Of a DNA stretch of 64,000 bases, positions 1 through 27,528 are shown in pieces. A model generated the notes under the pieces. It had not been told where the DNA came from, did not search any database, and was given only the letters and a program-made list of their open reading frames with translations. A program made the translations under genes and the position numbers. The first letter of the stretch is position 1. The number at the start of each line of letters is the position of its first letter. Source of the stretch: Escherichia coli (GTDB taxonomy: Bacteria > Pseudomonadota > Gammaproteobacteria > Enterobacterales > Enterobacteriaceae); assembly GCF_013122565.1 (NCBI RefSeq), contig NZ_CP053258.1. One strand, given 5' to 3'.

Positions 1-1051
1 CAATTAATTTAAATCTTATTATTTGATTAACAAAGCATCATCATTACTGCATCTTATTCTCTATATCTTTTACGTCGGGGTAGATTCTTTATGGTCATTA
101 CGGGCAGGCGACATTTCATTATATTACCATTTGCATTCACGCTTGTAACCCTTAAGAGTTATATAAAAAGGAAAGAGTTCTTGCTCATGGTATTACTGAG
201 ATCGGATTAACCATGAGGTTAGCTATATAGAGAGCTTTGGCTTTGCGACAATTGGCTTAAGCAGCCACATTATGCCTGGCTTATCGTTGAAAGGGAGAAA
301 GAAGAGCAAAACGGTTTGGCAAGCTTTCATTCCCATCTAATAGCAATCACCGCTATACATCATCCCTTAACGTATTCTGGTCTTCATAAAAATGTTATTC
401 TAAATTAAAGATTGTAATGATTTTAATAATGTTGTTATTATTTTGCAACAAATCAATATAACACAATGATTATTCGCGATTTTTTATTAGTTAAGAGGAA
501 TTGTTTTTACAGATTGCGCTACAATTCCGCTCATTTCTCACCACAGGAAAAGCTGAAGTAATCTTAAATGACTGTATTAACCCTTTTCTCCGCTGCCAGC
601 ACTCTTAAATATCGTTGTTTTATTCTTATAAAAACGGCTTTTTTGACATAAAAAGTAATAGGTTCAGCCATTATGCAGAATTTACAACCTGAGAAAATCG
701 CAAAAAACACTCTTATTCAGAATAAAACTCTGTTTATCATCTTTCGGTAAGCATTAAATTACTATATTACCGTTCAACATGAGTATGAATGAAAATTCAG
801 TTGTTATACATGTGATGAATGTCATATATTGTGCTCATCGATTGCAGGACATCGCTATTCTTTTAGAGATACAGATATCACGCTGTTACTCTCTAATATA
901 AAGAACACGCAAAGATTAGTTGTGTTACTGCAGTTGTTATGTCGCATATGGAATGCCCATTGTTACATCTTTAGTAAAAAGCTTTATTCACTTTCAAAAT
1001 TTTTACTCCATGAAGATAGGCTGTTTTGCTGCAAGCAATTGAGTTAGTGCA

Positions 1052-1675
1052 ATGAACAAGAACTTACTAACAAGGGTAATTATCATTTCGGATGATCTAT
1101 ATTACCTTCAGGGATTAAGTGCAAAACTAGGTCACCATTATCGTTTTTTTATTGAGTGTTTTTTTTGTTCTCAAAATGCATGCAATAATGACCTAAGTAC
1201 ACTTAGATTTGACAACCGCTTTACAAAAAACGTACTTCTTGTCGCAGTGGATGACGTAAGTATACTTGCAAAACTGCCAGATTTGGCCAGGTTTTTAATG
1301 ATTGTTTCACTAAGAAAGATGAAAAACAGAAATATCTTCTTTTCACTTTCAGAGCAAACATTCATTAGCCGATATATAAAATTGAATAAACTCATTACTT
1401 TGATTAAAAGTACTGATAAAGACCAGCAAGTCAGGCAGGTGACTCTGACAAGGTATGAGTGGGATATCTATTACTTATTTTTTAAGATAGATAACAAAAG
1501 AATATTGCACACCCTGCTAAAAAAGGATGTCAAGTATATTAGTCACTATAAAATATCAGTTTTTAATAAGTTTGAAATTGCTTGTGATAGTGATGGCTTT
1601 TACATTTTCAAGGCACTTATACAGTTAAGGAGATTTACCCGTTTTAAAAACGTCAGATTGTATCAATTGCATTAA
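1052..1675 (+). CDS. Putative LuxR-family (FimZ/EcpR-like) transcriptional regulator immediately upstream of the fimbrial operon; the receiver-like N-terminus appears degenerate
   Basis: 207-aa ORF. C-terminal segment LTRYEWDIYYLF...KDVKYISHYKISVFNKF resembles a LuxR/FixJ-type HTH. Very AT-rich codon usage. Position directly 5' of the fimbrial major subunit gene. No similarity search was run. Confidence 0.45.
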   Translation: MNKNLLTRVIIISDDLYYLQGLSAKLGHHYRFFIECFFCSQNACNNDLSTLRFDNRFTKNVLLVAVDDVSILAKLPDLARFLMIVSLRKMKNRNIFFSLSEQTFISRYIKLNKLITLIKSTDKDQQVRQVTLTRYEWDIYYLFFKIDNKRILHTLLKKDVKYISHYKISVFNKFEIACDSDGFYIFKALIQLRRFTRFKNVRLYQLH

Positions 1676-1717
1676 TTAACTCGTTCTATATTAACTCTAA
1701 ATTTCAAGGATATTAAT

Positions 1718-2278
1718 ATGTTTTCTACTTTCAAAAAAGCAGCTCTGCTGGCAGCTATTGCATTACCTTTTTCAACTATGGCTGCGCCTACAGTCACTTT
1801 TCAGGGTGAAGTAACCGATCAGACCTGTTCCGTAAATATCAACGGTCAAACCAATTCAGTAGTATTGATGCCGACCGTAGCCATGGCTGACTTCGGTGCA
1901 ACTTTAGCTGATGGTCAGAGCGCAGGCCTGACGCCGTTTACGGTTTCTGTGTCTAACTGCCAGGCTCCAACTGGTACAGATCAGGCAATCAACACCACCT
2001 TCCTGGGCTACGACGTTGACGCTAGCACGGGTGTTATGGGAAACCGTGATACCAGCAGCGATGCGGCGAAAGGCTTTGGCATTCAGTTAATGGATTCCAG
2101 CACTTCTGGTAACCCAATAACTCTGGCTGGCGCGACTAACGTACCGGGTCTGACCCTGAAAGTTGGCGATACCGAAGCCAGCTACGACTTCGGTGCGCGT
2201 TACTTCGTTATCGATAGCGCTGCTGCCACTGCCGGTAAAATTACCGCTGTCGCAGAATACACCCTGAGCTACCTCTAA
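1718..2278 (+). CDS. Fimbrial major subunit (type-1/FimA-like pilin) of a chaperone-usher pilus
   Basis: 186 aa with an N-terminal signal peptide (MFSTFKKAALLAAIALPFSTMAA). FimA-like mature N-terminus TVTFQGEVTDQTCSV and a second Cys forming the conserved pilin pair. C-terminal beta strand ending AVAEYTLSYL. Confidence 0.8.
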   Translation: MFSTFKKAALLAAIALPFSTMAAPTVTFQGEVTDQTCSVNINGQTNSVVLMPTVAMADFGATLADGQSAGLTPFTVSVSNCQAPTGTDQAINTTFLGYDVDASTGVMGNRDTSSDAAKGFGIQLMDSSTSGNPITLAGATNVPGLTLKVGDTEASYDFGARYFVIDSAAATAGKITAVAEYTLSYL

Positions 2279-2342
2279 TTAATCTACTGGCTGGCAGTAA
2301 ATGTCAGCCAGTATTTCTTTGCACAATTAATAGTGATTTTTC

Positions 2343-3065
2343 ATGGACATGGAAAAGATAAGAATGAACATTTTTGCATATTTACTGGTACTTGTATTTT
2401 CCATGAGCATGAGCAGCAGCGCGTTTGCCAGCGTGGTAATGACCGGAACCCGTATTATTTTCCCTGGTGACGCAAAGGAAAAAACCATCCAGTTGCGAAA
2501 TACCAGCGATCAGCCCTATATCATTAATATCCATGTTGAGGATGAACGTGGTTCTGACAAGAATATACCGTTTATGCCAACCCCGCAGACATTTCGCATG
2601 GAAGCTGCCGCAGGTCAGGCGTTACGCCTGCTCTACACTGGTGATAATTTACCGCAGGATCGCGAGTCTGTTTTCTGGTTTAGTTTCAGTCAACTACCTT
2701 ATCTGAATAAGAACGATAAAAGTCAGAACCAGCTCATCCTGGCCCTGACTAATCGAGTCAAAATTTTCTATCGTCCCAGCTCAATTGTCGGTAAATCCAG
2801 TGACGCGCCAAAAAACCTGACTTACCAAGTAAAACAGAACCGCATTGAAGTGACGAATCCCACGGGCTATTACGTCGTGATTCGCGCCGCTGAACTGCTT
2901 AATAACGGTAAAAAAGTCCCCCTCGCGAATTCCGTCATGATTGCTCCTCAAGGCAAAACTGAATGGACACTACGCACTGGCATCAGCGTCGCTCCCGGTG
3001 CGCAGATTCATTTAGTGACCGTCAATGACTATGGCGTAAATGTCACGTCTGAGCATGCCTTATAA
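2343..3065 (+). CDS. Periplasmic fimbrial chaperone (PapD/FimC family)
   Basis: 240-aa ORF containing a signal peptide and PapD-like motifs (RIIFPGDAKE..., LPQDRESVFWFSF, RVKIFYRP). The true start may be an internal Met (MNIFAYLL...). Confidence 0.85.
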   Translation: MDMEKIRMNIFAYLLVLVFSMSMSSSAFASVVMTGTRIIFPGDAKEKTIQLRNTSDQPYIINIHVEDERGSDKNIPFMPTPQTFRMEAAAGQALRLLYTGDNLPQDRESVFWFSFSQLPYLNKNDKSQNQLILALTNRVKIFYRPSSIVGKSSDAPKNLTYQVKQNRIEVTNPTGYYVVIRAAELLNNGKKVPLANSVMIAPQGKTEWTLRTGISVAPGAQIHLVTVNDYGVNVTSEHAL

Positions 3066-3117
3066 GCTCTTTCCCCTTTTTTGAGCGGTATCCTTTTTCA
3101 CGCACGAGTATGTCGAG

Positions 3118-5640
3118 ATGAATAAATCCGTTGTGTCAATTTCTGCGGCAATATTGGTTTTACTCTGCCAGCCGGTTATGGGGAAAGAAATCTCACCCGC
3201 TACACCGTCAGATGAAGATAACTACACCTTTGACCCGCAACTCTTTCGCGGCAGCAGATTTAGTCAGTCGTCATTGGCAAAACTGACAACTCGTGAGTCT
3301 GTTGCACCGGGTAATTATAAAATGGATATCTACACCAATAATAAGTTGTCAGGCAGTTGGAATGTCACGTTCAAAGAAGCCGCTGATGGTCGCGTTCTGC
3401 CCTGCCTGACGCCTGAAGTCGCGGACGCGATAGGCCTCAAAACAGGGGAAGATAAGGGTGAAAAAGATCCGGTCTGTACCTTTGCTCAGGAACTCGCTCC
3501 CGGCATCACCAGCCAGACACAGTTGTCACAACTACGCCTTGACTTGTCGGTGCCTCAGAGTCAAATGATTAGTCGCCCTCGCGGCTATGTCCCCCCCAGC
3601 GAGCTGGATACCGGAGCATCGCTGGCGTTCATGAATTATATTGCCAACTATTACAACGTTGCCTATTCAGGGCAGAATGCTCATAGCCAGCGTTCGCTAT
3701 GGGCATCATTTAATGGTGGCATCAACCTTGGTGCCTGGCAATATCGTCAGTTATCCAACATGACCTGGGATAATGACAAAGGGAATCAGTGGAACAATAT
3801 TCGTAGCTATTTGCAACGCCCGCTGCCCGCCATAAATAGCCAGTTAATGATGGGGCAGCTTATCACCAGCGGAAGATTTTTCTCTGGACTCAGTTATCAC
3901 GGCGTTAGTCTCGCGACCGATGAACGTATGCTGCCGGACTCCATGCGCGGCTATGCGCCGACTATTCGCGGCGTGGCCGCAACAAACGCCAGAGTCTCGG
4001 TAATGCAAAACGGTCATGAAATATATCAGACCACCGTGGCTCCTGGCCCTTTCGAGATAAACGACCTATACCCCACCAGCTACAGCGGCGATCTGGATGT
4101 CACCGTTACGGAAGCTAACGGCGCAGTCAGTCGTTTCAGTGTCCCCTTTTCAGCCGTACCAGAATCGATGCGTCCAGGAACTTCCCGTTATAACGTGGAA
4201 GTAGGTAAAACGCAGGATAGTGGTGATGACTCGATGTTTGGTGACCTTACCTGGCAGCACGGGATGACTAATACGCTGACATTTAACAGTGGTTCGCGTA
4301 TCGCTGATGGCTACCAGGCGCTGATGCTGGGCGGAGTCTATGGCAGTTCGCTGGGGGCATTTGGGGCAAACCTCACTTGGTCCCATGCGCGTGTTCCCGA
4401 AAGCGAAGCGCAGAGTGGTTGGATGTCGCAATTAACCTGGAGTAAAACTTTCCAGCCTACTTCAACCACCGTCTCCCTGGCAGGTTATCGATACTCTACC
4501 AGCGGCTATCGTGATCTGGCTGATGTGCTGGGAGAGCGTCATGCTGCCAGCAATAAACAGTCATGGGACTCCAGCCAGTGGCGTCAACAGTCGCGCTTCG
4601 ATCTTACGTTAAGTCAGAGCCTTGCGAATTACGGCAACCTGTTTGTGTCAGGTTCAACACAGAACTACCGTGGCGGCAAAAGCCGTGATACACAGCTTCA
4701 GTTAGGTTACAGCAATAGCTTTAGCCATGGCATCAGTATGAACCTTTCCGTCGGACGCCAAAGAATGGGCGGCTATAAAGACAATTCTGATGATATGCAG
4801 ACGGTAACATCCCTTTCATTCTCATTCCCACTTGGCGGCAATGGACCTCGTGTACCAAGTCTTAGCAACAGCTGGACCCATTCAACTGACGGTAGCTCGC
4901 AATTACAAAGCTCGCTAACCGGAATGCTTGATGAAGCACAGACCACCAACTACAGCCTGAACGTCATGCGCGATCAACAATATAAGCAGACGACGCTTAG
5001 CGGAAACATGCAAAAACGTTTTTCACAAACTACCGTCGGATTGAACGCATCGAAGGGCCAGGATTACTGGCAGGCTTCAGGTAACGTACAAGGCGCGATG
5101 GCTGTGCATGGTGGCGGCATTACTTTCGGACCTTATCTGGGTGAAACGTTCGCCCTGGTCGAAGCTAAAGGCGCAGAAGGTGCAAAAGTCTATAACTCCA
5201 GTCAGCTGGAAATTAATGACAGTGGCTATGCGCTTGTTCCGGCAGTAACGCCCTATCGATACAACCGTATATCTCTCGATCCACAAGGAATGGATGGCGA
5301 TGCCGAGTTGGTCGACAGTGAAAGACAGGTAGCACCGGTTGCAGGTGCGGCGGTGAAAGTAATTTTCCGTACCCGTCCTGGTAAAGCGTTGCTGATTAAA
5401 TCCCGCATGGCAGATGGTTCGGAACTGCCAATGGGAGCCGATGTGCTGGATGAGAATAATACAGTCGTCGGTATAGCCGGTCAGGGGGGGCAAATTTACC
5501 TCCGCACAGAACAGACAAAAGGCCACTTGTCAGTTCGCTGGGGTGAAGGTGCTAACGATAGCTGCCAATTGCCCTTTGATATCAGCGGGAAGGACAGCAA
5601 TAGCCCTATCATCCGCCTGAATGAAACCTGTCAGTCTTGA
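3118..5640 (+). CDS. Outer-membrane fimbrial usher (FimD/PapC family)
   Basis: 840 aa with a signal peptide, of typical usher size, placed between a chaperone gene and an adhesin gene. Gln/Ser/Asn-rich beta-barrel composition. Confidence 0.9.
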   Translation: MNKSVVSISAAILVLLCQPVMGKEISPATPSDEDNYTFDPQLFRGSRFSQSSLAKLTTRESVAPGNYKMDIYTNNKLSGSWNVTFKEAADGRVLPCLTPEVADAIGLKTGEDKGEKDPVCTFAQELAPGITSQTQLSQLRLDLSVPQSQMISRPRGYVPPSELDTGASLAFMNYIANYYNVAYSGQNAHSQRSLWASFNGGINLGAWQYRQLSNMTWDNDKGNQWNNIRSYLQRPLPAINSQLMMGQLITSGRFFSGLSYHGVSLATDERMLPDSMRGYAPTIRGVAATNARVSVMQNGHEIYQTTVAPGPFEINDLYPTSYSGDLDVTVTEANGAVSRFSVPFSAVPESMRPGTSRYNVEVGKTQDSGDDSMFGDLTWQHGMTNTLTFNSGSRIADGYQALMLGGVYGSSLGAFGANLTWSHARVPESEAQSGWMSQLTWSKTFQPTSTTVSLAGYRYSTSGYRDLADVLGERHAASNKQSWDSSQWRQQSRFDLTLSQSLANYGNLFVSGSTQNYRGGKSRDTQLQLGYSNSFSHGISMNLSVGRQRMGGYKDNSDDMQTVTSLSFSFPLGGNGPRVPSLSNSWTHSTDGSSQLQSSLTGMLDEAQTTNYSLNVMRDQQYKQTTLSGNMQKRFSQTTVGLNASKGQDYWQASGNVQGAMAVHGGGITFGPYLGETFALVEAKGAEGAKVYNSSQLEINDSGYALVPAVTPYRYNRISLDPQGMDGDAELVDSERQVAPVAGAAVKVIFRTRPGKALLIKSRMADGSELPMGADVLDENNTVVGIAGQGGQIYLRTEQTKGHLSVRWGEGANDSCQLPFDISGKDSNSPIIRLNETCQS

Positions 5641-5655
5641 TACAGAGAAAACCCG

Positions 5656-6990
5656 ATGTCTAAATCGACTTTATTACACATTCTGATTAGCTCCATCATA
5701 TTGGTGGCACTAATACAATCATCCGCTTGGGCTAACTGTACAAACACACAGATAGGTCAAACTGAAGATGGTCGGACAGCGCTTATTGAGTTCGGAAAAA
5801 TTAATATGACCGACACCTATTTTGCGCCAGCAGGTTCACTCCTCGCGACAACGGTCGTACCTCCCACTAACTACACATCAGGTGGCGCGACAGGAAGCTC
5901 AGTATTGTGGGAATGTGATGCAACAGATTTGCCAAACATCTATTTTCTGGTCGCTACCAATGGCGACGACCGCGTGGGGGGCTTTTACGATGCAGGCGGG
6001 CCTGATGGTCTGAGTGATGTCTATGCCACCTGGTTCGCTTTTGTCGGTCTCAAGCAGACCATGGCGGGCGTGACGCTTGGTCGTTACTGGAAGAAAGTGC
6101 CCATCACCAGTTATGCCACTCAGGGAACTAAAATCCAGATTCGCTTACAGGATATCCCTCCTCTTCATGCTGAGCTTTATCGCATCAGTACGCTACCTGA
6201 TACATCAGCAACAACAAGTTGGTGCGGTAATAATAATACAGATGGTAGTGGAGTCGGATTCGCAAAACCTTCCGGTACAATCTATAACTGTGTTCAGCCC
6301 AATGCCTATATTCAGCTTTCCGGTACCAGCGGCATTTTATTTGGTCATGATGAGCCCGGCGAAGATAGTTCTGTTCATTGGGATTTCTGGGGTGCTGATA
6401 ATGGTTTTGGTTACGGAATGCGTTCGGCCAATCGACTCTACAACAATGCCACCTGCGTTGCCCGCAGCGCCACGCCGTTAGTATTGCTGCCGACAATTGC
6501 AGAAGCACAACTGAATGCGGGCATGGAAAGTACCGGTAATTTTAATGTCCGCGTCGAGTGTAGTAACTCGGTTCAATCAGGGATTAGCGATACTCAGACA
6601 GCATTAGGAATCCAGGTGTCTGAAGGTGCATATACAGCGGCGCAAAAACTGGGGATTATCAATAGCAACGGCGGCGTCAGCGCCCTGGTCTCTGATAATT
6701 ATGACGCAGCAGAGATGGCAAAGGGCGTTGGGATCTACATTTCTAACAGTGCTCACCCCGATACGGCGATGACGCTGGTTGGTCAACCGGGCATCGCGAA
6801 GTTAACCCCCGGAGGAAATGCAGCGGGGTGGTATCCTGTATTTGAAGGGGCAACATTAGAAGGTGCGACTCACCCCGGATACTCCAGCTATAGTTACTCT
6901 TTTATCGCCCGGTTGAAGAAACTGCCAAATCAGACAGTCAGTGCGGGAAAAGTGCGGGCAACGGCTTATATATTGGTGAAAATGCAATGA
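5656..6990 (+). CDS. Putative fimbrial tip adhesin (two-domain: N-terminal lectin-like domain plus C-terminal pilin domain)
   Basis: 444 aa with a signal peptide (MSKSTLLHILISSIILVALIQSSAWA) and several Cys pairs. Pilin-like C-terminus ...VRATAYILVKMQ. Located after the usher; its stop overlaps the downstream chaperone start (ATGA). Confidence 0.6.
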   Translation: MSKSTLLHILISSIILVALIQSSAWANCTNTQIGQTEDGRTALIEFGKINMTDTYFAPAGSLLATTVVPPTNYTSGGATGSSVLWECDATDLPNIYFLVATNGDDRVGGFYDAGGPDGLSDVYATWFAFVGLKQTMAGVTLGRYWKKVPITSYATQGTKIQIRLQDIPPLHAELYRISTLPDTSATTSWCGNNNTDGSGVGFAKPSGTIYNCVQPNAYIQLSGTSGILFGHDEPGEDSSVHWDFWGADNGFGYGMRSANRLYNNATCVARSATPLVLLPTIAEAQLNAGMESTGNFNVRVECSNSVQSGISDTQTALGIQVSEGAYTAAQKLGIINSNGGVSALVSDNYDAAEMAKGVGIYISNSAHPDTAMTLVGQPGIAKLTPGGNAAGWYPVFEGATLEGATHPGYSSYSYSFIARLKKLPNQTVSAGKVRATAYILVKMQ

Positions 6991-7676
6991 AATCCGTTTT
7001 GCTCCTCTTAACCGTCTTGTTCGTACAGTCAGTGGAAGCCGGCATCATGCCGGCTTCTTCACGGATTATTTATCGCGATGGCGATCGGGAAAAGACACTG
7101 ATGCTGGTCAATACCAATGACTATCCGGTACTGGTGCAAAGTTGGGTAGATAATGGTGAAGGTTCCCCAGAATCTGCTTCTCCCCCCTTTGTGGTGCTGC
7201 CACCGGTTTTCCGCCTGGCTGCGAGACGAACCCAGGGGTTGCGGATTATCTATAATCATGACCCACTTCCCCAGGATCGCGAATCTGCATTCTGGTTAAA
7301 TCTTTATGAAATGCCGCCAGAAACTCCCCATCAAGATCCCACACATTTAACGCTGGCAATGAATACGCAACTTAAAATCTTTTACAGGCCAAAATCTGTA
7401 ACTATGACGCCCCAAGAAGCTATGCGTAAAATAAGTTGGCATCTGGGTAACGACGGCAGCAGTAGCTATATTGAGCTTAATAACCCAACACCACTGAATA
7501 TCTCTTTCACCTCCATCAGCATTGGGGCTACAAAGGTGCAGCAAGAAAGCGATATGATGATAAAACCCTTCAGTCAACGACGGTACTGGTTAGCAAGTAA
7601 TAACGTTAGTGGTGTGGTTGCGGCGACATATCTCGATGATAATGGTGCACAGATAAAACAACAATTAGCGCAATAA
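6987..7676 (+). CDS. Second periplasmic fimbrial chaperone (PapD-like)
   Basis: 229 aa with a signal peptide and the motifs RIIYRDGDREKTLMLVN, LPQDRESAFWLN and LKIFYRPKS. Start codon overlaps the adhesin stop codon, suggesting translational coupling. Confidence 0.8.
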   Translation: MKSVLLLLTVLFVQSVEAGIMPASSRIIYRDGDREKTLMLVNTNDYPVLVQSWVDNGEGSPESASPPFVVLPPVFRLAARRTQGLRIIYNHDPLPQDRESAFWLNLYEMPPETPHQDPTHLTLAMNTQLKIFYRPKSVTMTPQEAMRKISWHLGNDGSSSYIELNNPTPLNISFTSISIGATKVQQESDMMIKPFSQRRYWLASNNVSGVVAATYLDDNGAQIKQQLAQ

Positions 7677-7821: not shown

Positions 7822-8613
7822 TTAACGAATTGAATATCCACCATCAATGACTAATAGTTGTCCATTGACATAATCTGAAGCGGCACTGGCGAGGAACACC
7901 ATTGCGCCCATAAGATCCTGTGCCCTTCCCCAGCGTTGAGCCGGTATACGCCCTTTTATTAACTCTTTTATTTTAGGGTTATTATAAATAATAGCGGTCA
8001 TTTCACTCACATAATATCCTGGGGCGATACCATTAATCTGAATATTATATTCCGCAAAATCATCGGCATACGCTTTGGTCAGCCCCGCTAAAGCATGTTT
8101 AGTCGCCGCATACCCTGGCGACCAACGTCCCCCATGAAATGACAATACGGAACACATATTAATAATTTTCCCTTTTCTTTGCGGGACAAATATATTCAAT
8201 GCGGCCTGGCTCATATCGAATGCAGCATTCAGGTTGAGATTAATCATCGGATCCCAGTCGTTTCGATTGAAATCGATAGGACGATTAAAGTTACACACGC
8301 CCGCGTTATTGACCAGAATATCTAACTGACCGAAACGCTCCAGACACCTATTAATAATGGTGCATGCTGCATCAGGTTTTGTTATGTCTATTGTCATAAA
8401 CTCAACTTCAACGCCTTCATGAGTTAAATGCTTTAAATATCTATTATCAGGCTCTTTGATGTCTACCAACAATAGATTAGCCCCTGCTTTGGCCAGAGCC
8501 GAGCATAAGCCTCTCCCCAGCTCACCCGCGGCCCCAGTTACGATGGCCACCTTGTTATGTAATGAAAAAAAATCCAATGAAAAATCTTCAATAGAAAAGC
8601 TCATATCACACAT
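7822..8613 (-). CDS. Short-chain dehydrogenase/reductase, KduD-like (2-dehydro-3-deoxy-D-gluconate 5-dehydrogenase paralog)
   Basis: 263 aa. Rossmann motif VAIVTGAAGELG, NNAG motif, catalytic Y-x3-K (SPGYAATKHA), and a C-terminus ASDYVNGQLLVIDGGYSIR closely resembling KduD. Start may be the Met three codons downstream. Confidence 0.8.
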   Translation of the reverse strand: MCDMSFSIEDFSLDFFSLHNKVAIVTGAAGELGRGLCSALAKAGANLLLVDIKEPDNRYLKHLTHEGVEVEFMTIDITKPDAACTIINRCLERFGQLDILVNNAGVCNFNRPIDFNRNDWDPMINLNLNAAFDMSQAALNIFVPQRKGKIINMCSVLSFHGGRWSPGYAATKHALAGLTKAYADDFAEYNIQINGIAPGYYVSEMTAIIYNNPKIKELIKGRIPAQRWGRAQDLMGAMVFLASAASDYVNGQLLVIDGGYSIR

Positions 8614-9291
8614 TGCTCCTTATGAGTAAGTAATATTTAAGGGATAATTTAAGTAATTTTTAGATTTCAATAAAAAAATATAAACATTAAAACTCAGCAT
8701 GAATAATAAACATCAAATCTTATATACATTTAAGTAGTGATGTATCACGTAAAAATATAGTCATCATAGATGTTATGCAGTACGCACAAAAAAACAGACT
8801 GGATTTGCTTGCTGATCTATAATCTTTATCTAAATTACTATTGGCGCTTTGGATAATAACATAAGCATATATTACCTCCTAGCAATAATAGACATAACCT
8901 CATATCAAGGTGTCACTGGTAAATAATCGGATAAAGGACAGTACCGGTCGGCACATAGAGCTTCTTCTATTTCACCAGAAGTGCACAGCAGGGAACTACC
9001 AATCACACGGTTAGTGTCATGGGTGGAGGATGCGTCCCGTTCTTTCCCAATAACGGGGATACGCAGTTTTTATCAGTACATGCAGAAAAACCCCTAATTC
9101 ACATCACTGCAGAAAGCATTTAATAGAAATATACATCGTTTAAGAATTTCAATTAAATCAAGATTATTCTTAAAAATCAGATAATTCACATTTGCATTTT
9201 TAGGAAATTATACTATAGTGCAATTAATGTTCTTGCCTTTATTTTGTAAGTAATACTGGATTTGTAATACACAACTAAGGTATAAAATGTA

Positions 9292-10104
9292 ATGATCTAC
9301 ATTATAAATGATGAAGTAAGATTCAACTCATCATCTAATAAGTTAACATCACTCCTTACATCAGAGGAAGTGATACTCACTTATCCTGCGGGAAAATGCT
9401 TAAAATTACTTTTAGATAACGCTTATAGTGTCGTATCGCACAATCAATTCTTTGAAAAAGTCTGGAGCGATAGCAGCGCTGAAGTCGCAACCAATACTTT
9501 ATATCAAAACATTTCGATGATAAGACGCTCCTTTCGTGAAATCAGCTCATCGACGATATTTAATGATATTATCAGAACGGTGCCGCGTAAGGGTTTTAAA
9601 ATCAATGAAGAAATCAACATAACTGTTCTCGACAATAATCATACTGAGAATGAAAGTGTTGAGAGTGAAGAGGATGGTACCCACATTGAAAATATAAATA
9701 AAAATCATGTTGCAAAAGATATTTTCACCACAAAGAATACATTACTTATAGTGTACTTTTTTGCGGCATGGGGGATAGTGTATATATCTTCTTATTTTTT
9801 CGATATGGCTTTTCAAAGCAAAGCTCACACTATAAAAAAAACAGATGCTTTCTCAAATTATGCTCAACATCCTACTCAGGAAGGGTGTAGCTATTTCTAT
9901 GACAATATATATTTTAATTCCGTAGACATGTTATCACCGATTATTGAAAAATTGCAGAAAATGGAAATTAACTGCAAAATACATCCTTACATTTACATTG
10001 CAACAAATGATAGCATGAGCGGGTTTTATGCTTTCACCTGTAGTCAGATGTTAAACTCTGAATCACCAAATAATTGTAATTCTCTCTATTATAAAGCGGA
10101 GTAA
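9292..10104 (+). CDS. Membrane-anchored ToxR/CadC/MarT-like transcriptional regulator (N-terminal OmpR-type winged helix, one TM segment, Cys-containing periplasmic domain); resembles E. coli YqeI
   Basis: 270 aa. Winged-helix signature ...FFEKVWSDSSAEVATNTLYQNISMIRRSF...IIRTVPRKGFKI. Acidic linker followed by a hydrophobic segment NTLLIVYFFAAWGIVYISSYFF. About 100-aa C-terminal domain with four or more Cys. A GG-containing RBS-like motif lies upstream of the ATG. Confidence 0.7.
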   Translation: MIYIINDEVRFNSSSNKLTSLLTSEEVILTYPAGKCLKLLLDNAYSVVSHNQFFEKVWSDSSAEVATNTLYQNISMIRRSFREISSSTIFNDIIRTVPRKGFKINEEINITVLDNNHTENESVESEEDGTHIENINKNHVAKDIFTTKNTLLIVYFFAAWGIVYISSYFFDMAFQSKAHTIKKTDAFSNYAQHPTQEGCSYFYDNIYFNSVDMLSPIIEKLQKMEINCKIHPYIYIATNDSMSGFYAFTCSQMLNSESPNNCNSLYYKAE

Positions 10105-10108
10105 TCAT

Positions 10109-10600
10109 ATGACTCAAAGATATTTTCTATTTGCGGGAATAATTTTATGTGCTTTTATTGCAGCAATTCTTAGCCATATTGCGTTTCATCATGCCAATGA
10201 ACCAGCAGAGCAAAACATATCATGTAATGCCCATGTTATTAATTTCACCGATCATACGAAAATGGATCAATACTTTTCGTTAAATATGATTTCTGAAAAT
10301 AATACAGGGAATATGTATCTCACGGGTGCTTACACGGTAAATGGGAAAAAAATGGGTTTCATCCGCCGATATGTGAGTTTTACATACAAGAAATTCCGTG
10401 ATACCGTTTATTTCACCACAGTTAAAATACAAAAAATACAAAAAGATGATAACATTAGTGATGAAATCCTTGAAAATATCACTTCTGATTTTTTCATAAA
10501 AGTAGACACCTCAATTAATTTTTATGTTACACGTCAAAATGATTACAACTACGTATTCTCTACAGGCAGGACACCACGCTTCATATGTATTTCCCACTAA
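10109..10600 (+). CDS. Small N-terminally anchored periplasmic partner protein (ToxS/FidL/YqeJ-like) of the upstream ToxR-like regulator
   Basis: 163 aa. Starts 4 nt after the upstream stop (coupled). Single N-terminal TM (YFLFAGIILCAFIAAILSHIAF) followed by an Asn/Thr-rich periplasmic domain. Size and arrangement match ToxS/FidL-type partners. Confidence 0.5.
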   Translation: MTQRYFLFAGIILCAFIAAILSHIAFHHANEPAEQNISCNAHVINFTDHTKMDQYFSLNMISENNTGNMYLTGAYTVNGKKMGFIRRYVSFTYKKFRDTVYFTTVKIQKIQKDDNISDEILENITSDFFIKVDTSINFYVTRQNDYNYVFSTGRTPRFICISH

Positions 10601-10700
10601 CAGTAGTGTTGATCATTGCGCTTGTCATCAGATAATAACCTTCTGATGGCTTTGTTTATATTTTAAGGCAATAAAAAACATTCCAATATTGGTTAATTAT

Positions 10701-12215
10701 TTATCTGTTTACATACCACTGATAAAACTCTGTCGCTTTCATTGGTTTTGCATATAAGTACCCCTGAACTAATGTCACGTTATTATGAATAAGATATTCC
10801 GCCTGGTGAGGAGAACTGACACCTTCTGCAATCGTTATCAAATTTAGTCGATTACTCAGCTTAATAATAATATCTAAAACTGGCGTTTCGTCTTCCGCTG
10901 TAGTGAGTGTGTCTATAAAGCTTTTATCTATTTTAAGATAATCAACAGACAACTTTTGTAGAAGGCCAAGGGAACAATATCCCGTGCCAAAATCATCAAC
11001 TGCAAATTCACAGCCATGGATCCTTAATTCATTTATTTTCTGTAATGCAAGATCAGTGTCTTCAACCAGATTGCGTTCGGTAATCTCAAGGACAATATTA
11101 AATTTATCAGATATTGCATTTTTAATATGTAAAACATCAGCAACAAAGTCAGGATGTGCAAGATGTTCCGCGGCAATATTTATCCCAAGGTGAAACGGTT
11201 TTTTCACTTTCCAGCTTTGTACATCCTGAATAATCAGTTCAAAGAGATGCTTAGTTAACGGTATTATTAAATTTTCCTCTTCTGCCGCGCGGATAAAAAC
11301 TACCGGAGATATATTTTTACCATCTTCGCGTTGCCAGCGCATTAACGCTTCAACCCCCAGACACGCTTTGGTTGTCGTGTCGCACACTGGTTGATAATGC
11401 ACAGAAAATTCTCCGGATGACATTCCTTTTTTAATTTCTTCTGCCAGCGACATTTTCCGTGACATCCAGTGCTGCCATAAGAAATAGAGAATAAAAGAAA
11501 GAATAATAGATAACGGCAAAATATAAAGCACATTGCTAATGATATAGGGATATAACGAAATCATCGGCGTAGTAACTGTAAGACGAGCCTGACTGTTCGC
11601 AGAATTAAAATCTCTTTTTAACATATATAACCTGTCATTATTATTTACACCACTAATAATTGCAGGCCCTTCAGTAAAGCGAAGAGAAAATGAATCATCA
11701 TTCTCATCATCAAGAACATCCATTAGATCATAGATATATCGTGACTCGACAATACTAAAAGCTGTCATATTATTCCCTAATGGCATAAGGAACACTATGG
11801 CTGTTTTACCTGGTACAAAACTTGTTCCGCTAATTGATACTATGCGTGATTCTTTATTTTTATTGTGAAAGCTCGTACCGTAAACATCGTTAACATTCAT
11901 TTTTTTGAAACCGCTAACTGAAGAACATATTTGGAAATTATTTTCTATAAGACCCGTTGTTCGAACATAGGGAGTCAATGCTCCGTTAGCAATCAACTGC
12001 TCCAGGATATCTTTGCAGGGTTTCATCACCAGAATAGAAGTAAGCTTTGTCGTATGCTGGACAATTTGCGTAACATTATCAAGCTGTTTTAACAGAATAC
12101 CGGCGGTAATTGTCGTATCTCTATTCATTTGAAATATTGACATAGCAAACGATAGTAACACCCCCAGAATGCCTGGTATTATAATGAGTACAAACATTTT
12201 TTTGTTGAATACCAT
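10701..12215 (-). CDS. pdeT: CSS-motif EAL-domain c-di-GMP phosphodiesterase (PdeT/VmpA-like), absent from K-12
   Basis: ORF 10701..12311. Probable start is the Met at 12215 (MVFNKKMFVLIII...), immediately before TM1. Periplasmic domain with CSS motif (QICSSVSG) and a second Cys, then TM2. EAL domain with intact EAL (GVEALMRW), LEITE and DDFGTGY motifs. The gene name is assigned from memory of the EHEC vmpA/pdeT locus next to dgcT. Confidence 0.75.
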   Translation of the reverse strand: MVFNKKMFVLIIIPGILGVLLSFAMSIFQMNRDTTITAGILLKQLDNVTQIVQHTTKLTSILVMKPCKDILEQLIANGALTPYVRTTGLIENNFQICSSVSGFKKMNVNDVYGTSFHNKNKESRIVSISGTSFVPGKTAIVFLMPLGNNMTAFSIVESRYIYDLMDVLDDENDDSFSLRFTEGPAIISGVNNNDRLYMLKRDFNSANSQARLTVTTPMISLYPYIISNVLYILPLSIILSFILYFLWQHWMSRKMSLAEEIKKGMSSGEFSVHYQPVCDTTTKACLGVEALMRWQREDGKNISPVVFIRAAEEENLIIPLTKHLFELIIQDVQSWKVKKPFHLGINIAAEHLAHPDFVADVLHIKNAISDKFNIVLEITERNLVEDTDLALQKINELRIHGCEFAVDDFGTGYCSLGLLQKLSVDYLKIDKSFIDTLTTAEDETPVLDIIIKLSNRLNLITIAEGVSSPHQAEYLIHNNVTLVQGYLYAKPMKATEFYQWYVNR

Positions 12216-12408
12216 ACATGTTTCCCCACGCATCAGGGTGATGCAACCTAAGAAATTATAGTACAATTGCCAGTAAAAGCGGGTGATAGCAGATTGATCA
12301 ATGATAAGCATTTAAGATCATATAGTACTATGATATTTCTGAAAATTGTTACGCAAGTCTGCGAATAGCTATTTAGCGCTTACCAAAATCACCCGCTAAA
12401 ATGCCGCT

Positions 12409-24458: not shown

Positions 24459-25289
24459 TTACGCGGAGCGAGACGCTGTCGCCCCTGCGCGTGGTGGCAG
24501 AGCAAATGCCACCAGCGCCGGGATGAGATAAATAAACCAGACGGCGACTTCGCTGACGCTCGGCGCTTCCTGATAGCCAAAAATCCCTTCCATCAGCGTG
24601 CCAAACAGCGAGTGAGTTGAGAGCACCGCACTCATATCGAAGGCGATTTCCTGAAAGTGGTTCCACAATCCGGCTTCATGAAATGCGCGAATGGCACCAG
24701 CTGCCAGCCCTGCGGCGACGAAGAGAATAAACAGGCTGGTCCATTTAAAAAATGCACCAAGATTGAGGCGAATACCGCCCCAGTAGAGCAGGAAGCCTAG
24801 CACCACGGCAGTAGCAAGACCGAGCATTGCACCCAGCGGCGGCCAGATCCCGACATCTTGTTGAAATGCCGCCAGCAGGAAAAAGACCGACTCCAGCCCT
24901 TCCCTTGCAACGGCAAAAAAGACCATCATCACCAGCGCCCAGCCATGATGATTTCCACGCTGCAATGCGCTATCGACTGCCTGTTCCAGTTGCACTTTGA
25001 CGTTGCGCGACACTTTGCGCATCCAGAAAACCATCCAGGTAAGGATCACCACGGCGATCACCGCCACGATACCTTCAAACAGTTCCTGTTCTTTTTGCGG
25101 AAATTCGCCGGTGGTTTCGTTAATGAAGATACCCAAGCCCAGGCACAACGCAGCGGCAAGCAACACGCCAATCCACATCACACCAATCCATCGGCCTCGC
25201 TGGGTACGCTTAAGATAGCTGGCAATCAAACTGACAATCAGCGCGGCTTCAAGTCCTTCGCGCAACATAATGAGAAACGGAACAAACAT
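24459..25289 (-). CDS. efeU: EfeU, Ftr1-family ferrous iron permease; intact reading frame
   Basis: 276 aa from MFVPFLIMLREGLEAALIV... with two REGLE motifs (REGLEAAL, REGLESVF). A single uninterrupted ORF, unlike the frameshifted K-12 allele. Confidence 0.9.
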   Translation of the reverse strand: MFVPFLIMLREGLEAALIVSLIASYLKRTQRGRWIGVMWIGVLLAAALCLGLGIFINETTGEFPQKEQELFEGIVAVIAVVILTWMVFWMRKVSRNVKVQLEQAVDSALQRGNHHGWALVMMVFFAVAREGLESVFFLLAAFQQDVGIWPPLGAMLGLATAVVLGFLLYWGGIRLNLGAFFKWTSLFILFVAAGLAAGAIRAFHEAGLWNHFQEIAFDMSAVLSTHSLFGTLMEGIFGYQEAPSVSEVAVWFIYLIPALVAFALPPRAGATASRSA

Positions 25290-25346
25290 GCCACCCACCC
25301 TTAAACGTTTTTCTGAGTCAATCTATGCAAAGAAAAGTAAATCGCA

Positions 25347-25366
25347 GTGATAGCGATTATCATTAC
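25347..25366 (-). promoter_or_regulatory. Candidate Fur box in the efeU promoter region
   Basis: gtgatagcgattatcattac; its reverse complement TAATGATAATCGCTATC resembles the Fur consensus GATAATGATAATCATTATC. Lies 60-80 bp upstream of the efeU start. Confidence 0.5.
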
Positions 25367-25831
25367 GGCAAAGAAAAACACAAGCGGAATGTTTATAAAA
25401 TGATGTTGGAATGTAAACAAAGAGAGGTAATGCCAGGGGATATAAACGATTATTCCAGGGTAGAAAGATGGGATTGTTTGCAAAGAACCATGTGTTCTTG
25501 CCGGATGCCGCGTAAACGCCATATCCAGCCGACAAAACTGTCCAGACTCAATGCATCAGAGCTTCCATGTAAAACTGATAAGCGGGTGTATCAAGCAATT
25601 TCGTCCATCCGCGATTATCAAATCTAACTTTTTGCCCGGAACATAATAACAGCTCGGGTGTTGGTGGCGTCAAAATCGCTGAAGCGTTCCCCGAAGGCCG
25701 GGACAGCAGGGGGCGGCGGCGATTGGCCGCCCCCTGCGCGCTCCCTGCACCATTCAATTTATATGGCGAGGCACATTAAGGGAGCGCAACCCGCTGCTGA
25801 AGCCAAACAAAACCGCCGCAGGCTAAGTCCC

Positions 25832-27340
<1,509 letters not shown>

Positions 27341-27528
27341 CTAAAGTCTCCAAAAAATTATTATCGGCAATGTCGAAACTTGCCGTTATATCTGCCACCG
27401 GAACGGGGTAACAGAGTTTATGTTTTACCAGGGCGACCGTATCCTGCCGGAAGCGCTGGTTATTCACAATCGATTTAACACACCATTTACATTAAATTTT
27501 AGTGCTCAGCGACACTATTTTTCATCAG

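Follow-up and report, generated by a model that had tools for sequence, protein, structure and literature searches.

GrvA is a regulator of the ToxR family that has been studied since 2005 for its role in the control of the enterocyte effacement locus (LEE) and of glutamate decarboxylase (GAD) acid resistance (reviews PMC10877973, PMC8565820; PMC6393859). Transcription of grvA is activated by RcsB, which binds the grvA promoter (reviews PMC8565820, PMC6393859), and GrvA in turn represses gadE indirectly via GadW, whereby ler/LEE is freed from repression, ler/LEE expression and adherence are raised and exponential-phase acid resistance is lowered (reviews PMC10877973, PMC8565820). GrvA/FidL (ECs_1274/ECs_1273), YqeI/YqeJ and MarT/FidL have been grouped as VtrA/VtrC-like co-component systems (Kinch et al., PNAS 2022, PMC9214523); the same study predicts lipocalin-like partner folds with a conserved disulfide and a confident GrvA/FidL heterodimer, and describes the co-purification of the YqeI and YqeJ periplasmic domains as a complex (PMC9214523). 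MarT/FidL activates the adjacent gene misL (PMC9214523), and YqeI has been studied in avian pathogenic Escherichia coli (PMC7552227). Here we present a computational analysis of two adjacent plus-strand genes, at 9292..10104 and 10109..10600, in a stretch of 64,000 nucleotides of Escherichia coli DNA (contig NZ_CP053258.1, assembly GCF_013122565.1), hereafter the window. With a probability of about 0.9, the pair is the grvA-fidL operon of O-island 47 (OI-47), a two-gene "co-component" system of the ToxR/ToxS and VtrA/VtrC kind. The system is thus known and already bears a name, is partly characterised in enterohaemorrhagic Escherichia coli (EHEC) and has been structurally classified, and is not a discovery. 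The original prediction, made from the sequence, had described the regulator as uncharacterised and the K-12 yqeI/yqeJ pair as unstudied, and neither description survives the literature cited above.

The identity of the pair can be deciphered from comparison with Escherichia coli O157:H7 Sakai. The encoded GrvA is identical to Sakai GrvA (ECs_1274) at 256 of 269 residues (95%), and the partner agrees with ECs_1273, a "FidL-like protein", at 160 of 162 residues (99%). The gene name grvA is borne by the Sakai RefSeq record itself; RefSeq labels for the pair are otherwise "winged helix-turn-helix domain-containing protein" for the regulator and "hypothetical protein", "FidL", "FidL-like protein" or "YqeJ family protein" for the partner. 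The order of genes in Sakai, namely ycdT, the EAL gene ECs_1272, ECs_1273, grvA (ECs_1274), a short-chain dehydrogenase/reductase (SDR) gene, a chaperone-usher operon and two-partner secretion (TPS) genes, matches that of the locus described here, and from the TPS genes to pgaABCD the order, the orientation, the gene lengths and the 4-nt spacer within the pair are the same in both.

Both reading frames start with ATG and are intact, the grvA ortholog encoding 270 aa and the FidL-like, YqeJ-family partner (ECs_1273 ortholog) 163 aa. At the junction of the two genes (10098..10111, plus strand) a GGAG motif (10098–10101) is followed by the grvA stop codon TAA (10102–10104), the spacer TCAT (10105–10108) and the ATG of the partner (10109–10111), placing GGAG inside the 3′ end of grvA and 7 nt ahead of the partner start, as the sequence itself shows. 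The arrangement is that of a classic coupled junction, and the two genes form a coupled unit. The spacing of 4 nt is found in Sakai as well, whereas most relatives instead overlap by 4–80 nt. GC content is 33% in grvA and in the partner gene and 32% in the 678-bp upstream spacer, against 49% in the whole window. The coupling across a 4-nt spacer and the AT-rich character of the block had both been anticipated, and the peptides quoted in the original prediction (VWSDSS, NTLYQNISMIRRSF and IIRTVPRKGFKI) all lie within the translation of grvA.

GrvA comprises a cytoplasmic OmpR/PhoB-type winged helix (residues ~2–106; the Pfam match at 25–103 corresponds to nt 9364–9600), an acidic and variable linker (residues 107–149), one transmembrane (TM) helix assigned by hydropathy (residues ~150–170, nt 9739–9801) and a periplasmic domain (residues 171–270, nt 9802–10101) with Cys199, Cys228, Cys250 and Cys262, all on the plus strand. 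Trans_reg_C (PF00486) was the single Pfam domain found (residues 25–103, E 3.6e-11), and the top match among PDB sequences was the DNA-binding domain of Vibrio cholerae ToxR (8b4b, E 1.8e-7, residues 2–106), with PhoB-type regulators and CadC (5ju7, E 0.06) ranking below it. The NCBIfam matches were sub-threshold and were confined to the N termini of CadC and HilA or, among response regulators, to the C-terminal part that binds DNA; since the response-regulator models align by their DNA-binding ends only, GrvA is devoid of a receiver domain. TM segments were called from Kyte–Doolittle windows of 19 residues scoring above 1.6, together with the helix of an AlphaFold2 model in the case of the partner, and such windows were restricted to residues 150–170 of GrvA and residues 1–29 of the partner.

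Exactly four cysteines, in invariant columns, were present in all 32 of the homologous periplasmic domains collected (32/32). Residues 176–270 of GrvA, modelled on an alignment of 24 periplasmic domains, gave a predicted local distance difference test score (pLDDT) of 83 and the order beta-beta-alpha-beta-beta-beta, and the closest fold to this model was the periplasmic domain of ToxR. GrvA is a ToxR-like membrane-tethered winged-helix regulator with one TM helix and no receiver domain. The architecture of an OmpR-type winged helix, one TM helix and a cysteine-containing periplasmic domain was proposed at the outset, with the absence of winged-helix or ToxR homology and of any TM segment named as grounds for giving it up; PF00486, the ToxR match to 8b4b, the hydropathy peak at 150–170 and the four cysteines were all found.

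The partner is predicted to consist of an N-terminal TM anchor (residues ~3–29, from hydropathy and the model) and a periplasmic eight-stranded lipocalin-like barrel (residues 37–162). In the model, which reached a pLDDT of 95.2, the TM helix at 3–29 is followed by eight strands, with Cys39 in the first strand (37–47), Cys160 in the last (155–162) and Cys14 within the TM helix. Cys39 does not vary across 67 partner-family sequences, in which the conservation of Cys160 is 90% or higher. Upon fold comparison the modelled barrel matches VtrC and ToxS best, at 4–13% identity in the structural alignments. The family is small and fast-diverging: in 1.84 billion proteins it amounts to 77 representative clusters at E ≤ 1e-3, and a length of about 150–165 aa is common to them all. 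Searches of the partner against Pfam-A in the version holding PF15941.10 gave no match even at E ≤ 10, an NCBIfam scan gave nothing meaningful, and the family profile found nothing relevant among PDB sequences, so that the link to ToxS and VtrC is seen by fold comparison only. The Pfam FidL_like profile itself recognises few of the 67 family members, 2 at E ≤ 0.001 and 4 at E ≤ 0.1, and the precomputed annotations of the 99%-identical cluster P0134 list PF27292.1 (YqeJ_C) and PF15941.12; the discrepancy between the Pfam miss and these precomputed matches looks like a difference of database version. As modelled, the partner is a VtrC/ToxS-type barrel with an N-terminal membrane anchor and a conserved cysteine pair, in agreement with the N-terminally anchored periplasmic ToxS/FidL-like protein foreseen in the original prediction.

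Certain points weigh against assigning the pair to grvA-fidL as a co-component operon. Its TM helices were called from hydropathy and the AlphaFold2 helix, and the partner has no match in the Pfam-A copy used, its link to FidL being drawn from transitive or profile evidence. No experimental paper on ECs_1273 was found in the literature, where the locus tag turns up only in Kinch et al. (2022) and in a software paper. The published effects of GrvA on gadE and LEE are indirect (reviews PMC10877973, PMC8565820), and deletion of the whole of OI-47 in strain TUV93-0, by which 27 genes were removed, raised type III secretion (PMC3378721). The latter result is opposite to what the loss of a LEE activator should bring about, and therefore the picture in EHEC is not a simple one.

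Upstream of grvA a control region at 9139..9190 (plus strand) holds a TAAGAAT half-site (9141–9147) and two direct AGATWATTC repeats (9161–9169 and 9179–9187). The repeats are 18 bp apart and lie within the RcsAB-box-like sequences CAAGATTATTCTTA and TCAGATAATTCACA, the second of which abuts or overlaps the −35 hexamer, and the inverted repeat TTTAAGAAT/ATTCTTAAA is located in the same control region. Positions 9139–9190 form the main block conserved between Escherichia coli and Pseudocitrobacter in an otherwise diverged intergenic region of 690–830 bp. Within the window AGATWATTC occurs at these two sites only, a frequency to be read against the 21 of 100 shuffles that also gave at least two matches, and a search of the window for an operator common to the rest of the island found none. 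Judged by their likeness to the RcsAB box consensus, the repeats are putative RcsB sites, and their layout fits the RcsB control reported for this gene.

The candidate promoter itself is sigma-70-like (9185..9214, plus strand), with −35 TTCACA at 9185–9190, an 18-nt spacer and −10 TATACT at 9209–9214, and would imply a 5′ untranslated region of about 70 nt. It agrees with the consensus at 10 of 12 positions, which is joint best in the scanned region with two minus-strand sites, and promoter-like matches in the region were no commoner than in shuffled sequence; the assignment is made because of its position and the adjacent conserved boxes, and not its score. Past the partner gene, 100 bp separate it from the convergent pdeT, and this gap holds a terminator-like hairpin (10624..10664, plus strand) with a 9-bp stem GUCAUCAGA/UCUGAUGGC, a 9-nt loop and a following U-rich tail, UUUGUUUAUAUUUU. 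A consensus terminator scan missed it because the stem is GC-poor, and RNA folding of a 105-nt segment gave a z-score of −1.9. The hairpin could, with weak to moderate support, terminate the operon.

The 1.6-kb locus was detected in 410 of 5426 complete Escherichia coli genomes, as a single copy in all of them; 400 of the 410 hold at least 80% of it, and one genome retains only 37%. Its predicted absence from K-12 accords with this patchy occurrence and with the definition of OI-47 as missing from K-12, the K-12 record itself not having been inspected. Positions 9100–10700 of the window are 100% identical to the baboon isolate PapRG-04-4 (sequence type ST8826). As the host of the window is not O157:H7, unlike Sakai, the LEE output known from EHEC may not apply to it. 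A review describes grvA and OI-47 as exclusive to the O157:H7, O55:H7 and O145:H28 lineage (PMC10877973). Contrary to that statement, grvA-fidL is not confined to these serotypes: several dozen complete genomes without those serotype labels carry the locus too, as estimated from a sampled ranking, and the sources outside the lineage include baboon, blackbird, calf, chicken, duck (O157:H16), fresh water and human, with one copy on a plasmid record.

Gene-by-gene comparison of the window with Sakai, in terms of nucleotide identity, synonymous divergence (dS) and the ratio of nonsynonymous to synonymous divergence (dN/dS), revealed an uneven pattern. The gene for a 207-aa protein (hyp207), the fimbrial subunit, the adhesin, the second chaperone and the SDR gene are 99.5–99.8% identical, with dS no higher than 0.012 and dN/dS of 0.28–0.62, ratios that represent 1–3 changes of each kind and are undefined for the subunit. 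The usher gene stands at 98.9% (dS 0.041, dN/dS 0.06), the first chaperone gene at 97.0% (dS 0.086, dN/dS 0.18) and the grvA promoter region at 99.0%. The corresponding values are 94.6% for grvA (dS 0.23, dN/dS 0.09), 96.5% for fidL (dS 0.17, dN/dS 0.03) and 96.4% for pdeT (dS 0.13, dN/dS 0.11). Together these three genes (9292–12311) constitute a sharply bounded divergent block with 3.5–5.4% nucleotide difference and up to 34 single-nucleotide polymorphisms (SNPs) per 500 bp, which suggests recombination or long-maintained alleles, either old or imported. The 13 substitutions between the two GrvA proteins fall mostly in the linker and the TM segment. From dN/dS values of 0.09 and 0.03 it follows that grvA and fidL are genes under purifying selection and not chance reading frames. 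A second, smaller divergent block with 18–24 SNPs per 500 bp was observed at 2500–3500, covering the first chaperone gene plus the usher gene's 5′ end, in a fimbrial operon otherwise near identical to that of Sakai. Away from the locus, the window differs from PapRG-04-4 at ~25000–27400 (36200–38860 in L001), where PapRG-04-4 has about 2.1 kb extra between efeU and putP, including a 447-aa hypothetical gene; putP occupies 25832–27340 of the window.

Neighbouring genes were named from the RefSeq record of PapRG-04-4, in which the TPS genes, the 207-aa gene, the chaperone-usher operon, the divergent SDR gene, the pair, the convergent EAL gene pdeT, dgcT and pgaABCD follow one another; this annotation bears out the placement of the pair between a fimbrial operon and the dgcT-pdeT-pgaABCD genes that was originally predicted. 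In the window the 207-aa gene and the Stb-like chaperone-usher operon span 1052–7676 (plus strand; from annotation, open reading frames and NCBIfam). The 207-aa frame (1052–1675, plus strand) heads this operon, is conserved in Sakai and in Pseudocitrobacter, and gave no Pfam or NCBIfam match. A KduD-like SDR gene at 7822–8604 (minus strand) is divergent from grvA and matches NF005390 with E 3e-88, below the curated cutoff. The K-12 yqeI-yqeJ pair is for its part located about 4.5 kb from the real kduD, which may have come about by chance or may be left over from a segmental duplication long ago. On the other side of the pair, pdeT (10701..12311, minus strand) encodes a vmpA-type EAL phosphodiesterase and is the convergent neighbour.

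Comparison across genera separates these two flanks. In Pseudocitrobacter, a pair with 51–52% identity is accompanied by the TPS gene, the 207-aa gene, the chaperone-usher operon and the SDR gene in the same order, whereas its other flank consists of unrelated sugar phosphotransferase system genes, with no pdeT-dgcT-pga. Related loci in other Enterobacterales were located by alignment to the GrvA family; 27 were recovered, 26 of them informative for neighbours. A ToxR-like gene is paired with a YqeJ-like gene in 20 of the 27, and an usher gene lies within 10 kb in 10 of the 26 and a TPS gene in 4 of the 26. One Klebsiella pair is located 2.3 kb from a chaperone-usher operon, and another pair stands directly upstream of two autotransporter genes. 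In Kosakonia and Buttiauxella (L020, L025, L027), members of another ToxR-like/YqeJ-like subfamily are directly divergent from a TPS cluster consisting of filamentous haemagglutinin (FHA) and ShlB genes with an SDR gene, whose FHA and ShlB products are 47–53% identical to the OI-47 TPS proteins; the association of such pairs with a TPS cluster thus recurs in a paralogous lineage.

Two ToxR-like/YqeJ-like pairs lie within 6 kb of each other in Trabulsiella (L013, L014) and in Citrobacter sedlakii (L021), and in Citrobacter amalonaticus (L009) a YqeJ-like gene stands as an orphan, lacking a partner regulator, which points to frequent duplication and decay in this family. The C. amalonaticus locus raised the possibility that YqeJ-like and CSS-EAL genes are linked in a conserved manner; this was rejected, as the EAL protein there shares only 24% identity with PdeT and the YqeJ-like gene is an orphan. 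Between the TPS gene and the 207-aa gene, the intergenic region (10561–11960 in L001, its right part corresponding to window 1–1051) bears strong footprints of conservation between Escherichia coli and Pseudocitrobacter, among them a conserved 12-bp inverted repeat GTCTGAAATGAT ... ATCATTTCAGAC some 270–310 bp from the start of the FHA-like gene and a conserved block about 200–290 bp upstream of the 207-aa gene (around 760–860 of the window). Such footprints might serve in the regulation of the adhesin operons.

With the pair taken as grvA-fidL, a mechanism can be proposed from the domain plan and from the related systems. GrvA and its partner would both insert into the inner membrane, and disulfides would form in both periplasmic domains, presumably via DsbA. 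The C-terminal beta-strand of GrvA would complete the open barrel of the partner, and the amount or oligomeric state of GrvA would be set by a hydrophobic gut-derived ligand (such as a bile salt or lipid), by the partner shielding GrvA from proteolysis, or by both; GrvA, still tethered to the membrane, would then bind AT-rich promoter DNA. The likeliest outputs in the source strain would be the GAD circuit and the adjacent adhesin operons.

The part played by the partner can be read differently, namely as a stabiliser or chaperone that guards the periplasmic domain of GrvA against regulated proteolysis, in the manner of ToxS with ToxR and of TcpH with TcpP, and not as a ligand sensor, with control exerted mainly through RcsB-driven transcription. 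We regard this as a real possibility that nonetheless falls short of even odds. The predicted ToxS fold of the partner and the conservation of disulfide-forming cysteines in both periplasmic domains speak in its favour, periplasmic cysteines being tied to protease sensitivity in ToxR and TcpP, and no input other than the control of the promoter by RcsB has been documented to date. On the other hand, the barrels of VtrC and ToxS bind bile salts in solved complexes (e.g. 8dml, 5kew), so that sensing and stabilising do not exclude each other. Far removed from either is the notion that the pair is a functionless remnant of a decaying island, for which marT in S. Typhi and the remnant of ETT2 (type III secretion system 2 of E. 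coli) in K-12 offer precedents. Truncated relatives of 157–210 aa in the databases, the genome with 37% of the locus and the orphan gene of C. amalonaticus demonstrate that such decay occurs, but both reading frames here are full length with the lengths seen in Sakai, dN/dS is 0.09 and 0.03 over dS of 0.17–0.23, the promoter block is conserved across genera, all structural cysteines are intact and nearly all carrier genomes hold most of the locus. Strong purifying selection on the pair as good as rules the notion out, and we consider it scarcely credible.

As regards the targets, the pair could be mainly a local signal-dependent activator of the surface genes of the island (Stb-like fimbriae, the TPS adhesin and perhaps pdeT), with the LEE and GAD effects in O157:H7 being secondary; this is compatible with the co-component architecture, and we hold it to be unlikely yet worth entertaining. 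The PsaE/PsaF pair, which controls the adjacent psa fimbriae, is a precedent, as is MarT/FidL with misL, and the TPS-to-SDR order kept in Pseudocitrobacter, the counts of usher and TPS genes near related pairs, the Klebsiella and autotransporter neighbours and the presence of the locus in strains not labelled EHEC (baboon, blackbird, chicken, fresh water), in which a LEE-directed role may not apply, all point the same way. Against these stand the facts that the adjacency counts are not independent, many of the loci coming from Kosakonia, Citrobacter and Trabulsiella, and that the background of about 5% for chaperone-usher operons is a rough estimate; moreover AT-rich islands cluster anyway, the pdeT-dgcT-pga linkage is specific to Escherichia coli, AGATWATTC marks the grvA promoter and was not found as a shared operator, and no data on OI-47 gene expression in grvA mutants were found in the literature. 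It had been suggested that the pair may be the local master regulator of this island. The comparative context favours, circumstantially, the fimbrial/TPS half over the pga/cyclic di-GMP half, and since the pair occurs without the dgcT-pdeT-pga side in Pseudocitrobacter, a "master regulator" of the biofilm side is unsupported. A bolder extension, which we put forward as speculation of doubtful standing, is that GrvA/FidL would not be a LEE regulator in the first place but an older ligand-gated switch, in commensal and pathogenic Escherichia and in Pseudocitrobacter, for the Stb-like fimbriae and the TPS adhesin with its fatty-acid-synthase-like cluster. What its FidL-like barrel senses would be a bile salt or a lipid of the gut, or even a lipid made by the acyl carrier protein (ACP) and ketoacyl synthase (KAS) genes of the island, and the GAD and LEE effects in O157:H7 would be a later indirect rewiring.

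Overall, the identity of the locus is settled as grvA-fidL and no further discovery effort is called for. The linkage of the pair to the fimbrial and TPS adhesin block across genera provides a concrete testable hypothesis on its native targets, and the presence of the locus in wildlife, poultry and environmental isolates widens its range beyond the EHEC 1 lineage stated in reviews.

The closest known systems include YqeI/YqeJ and MarT/FidL of Salmonella pathogenicity island 3 (SPI-3), which share with GrvA/FidL the two-gene plan, the protein lengths, the four cysteines of the regulator and the cysteine pair of the partner. By BLASTP, GrvA is 33% identical to K-12 YqeI (E 5e-40) and the partner 21% identical to K-12 YqeJ (E 3e-17), as expected of the paralogs that the original prediction took them to be. 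YqeI/YqeJ are paralogous and not orthologous to GrvA/FidL, and Kinch et al. take YqeI/YqeJ as the orthologs of MarT/FidL and GrvA/FidL as a paralogous cassette (PMC9214523). With a literature value of 30% identity between GrvA and MarT (PMC10877973), GrvA/FidL is filed as a paralog of MarT/FidL. The systems differ in context, YqeI/YqeJ and MarT/FidL belonging to ETT2 and SPI-3 respectively and GrvA/FidL to OI-47, and in the junction, yqeI and yqeJ overlapping by 8 nt whereas grvA and fidL are separated by a 4-nt gap. MarT, furthermore, acts on an adjacent gene, whereas GrvA has no known adjacent target.

The ToxR/ToxS and VtrA/VtrC systems of Vibrio, as well as TcpP/TcpH, have the same domain plan in both proteins, yet sequence similarity of ToxR/ToxS and VtrA/VtrC to GrvA/FidL is undetectable beyond the winged helix, and GrvA has four periplasmic cysteines whereas VtrA is without a conserved disulfide (PMC9214523). 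Binding of bile salts, which is shown for VtrA/VtrC and reported for ToxR/ToxS, is for GrvA/FidL a candidate property. CadC likewise presents a membrane-tethered OmpR-type winged helix under periplasmic disulfide control, and its DNA-binding domain is weakly similar to that of GrvA (NCBIfam E 9e-5). It differs in its length of 512 aa, its large two-subdomain periplasmic sensor and the absence of a lipocalin partner gene, and its identity to GrvA is 13% (review PMC10877973).

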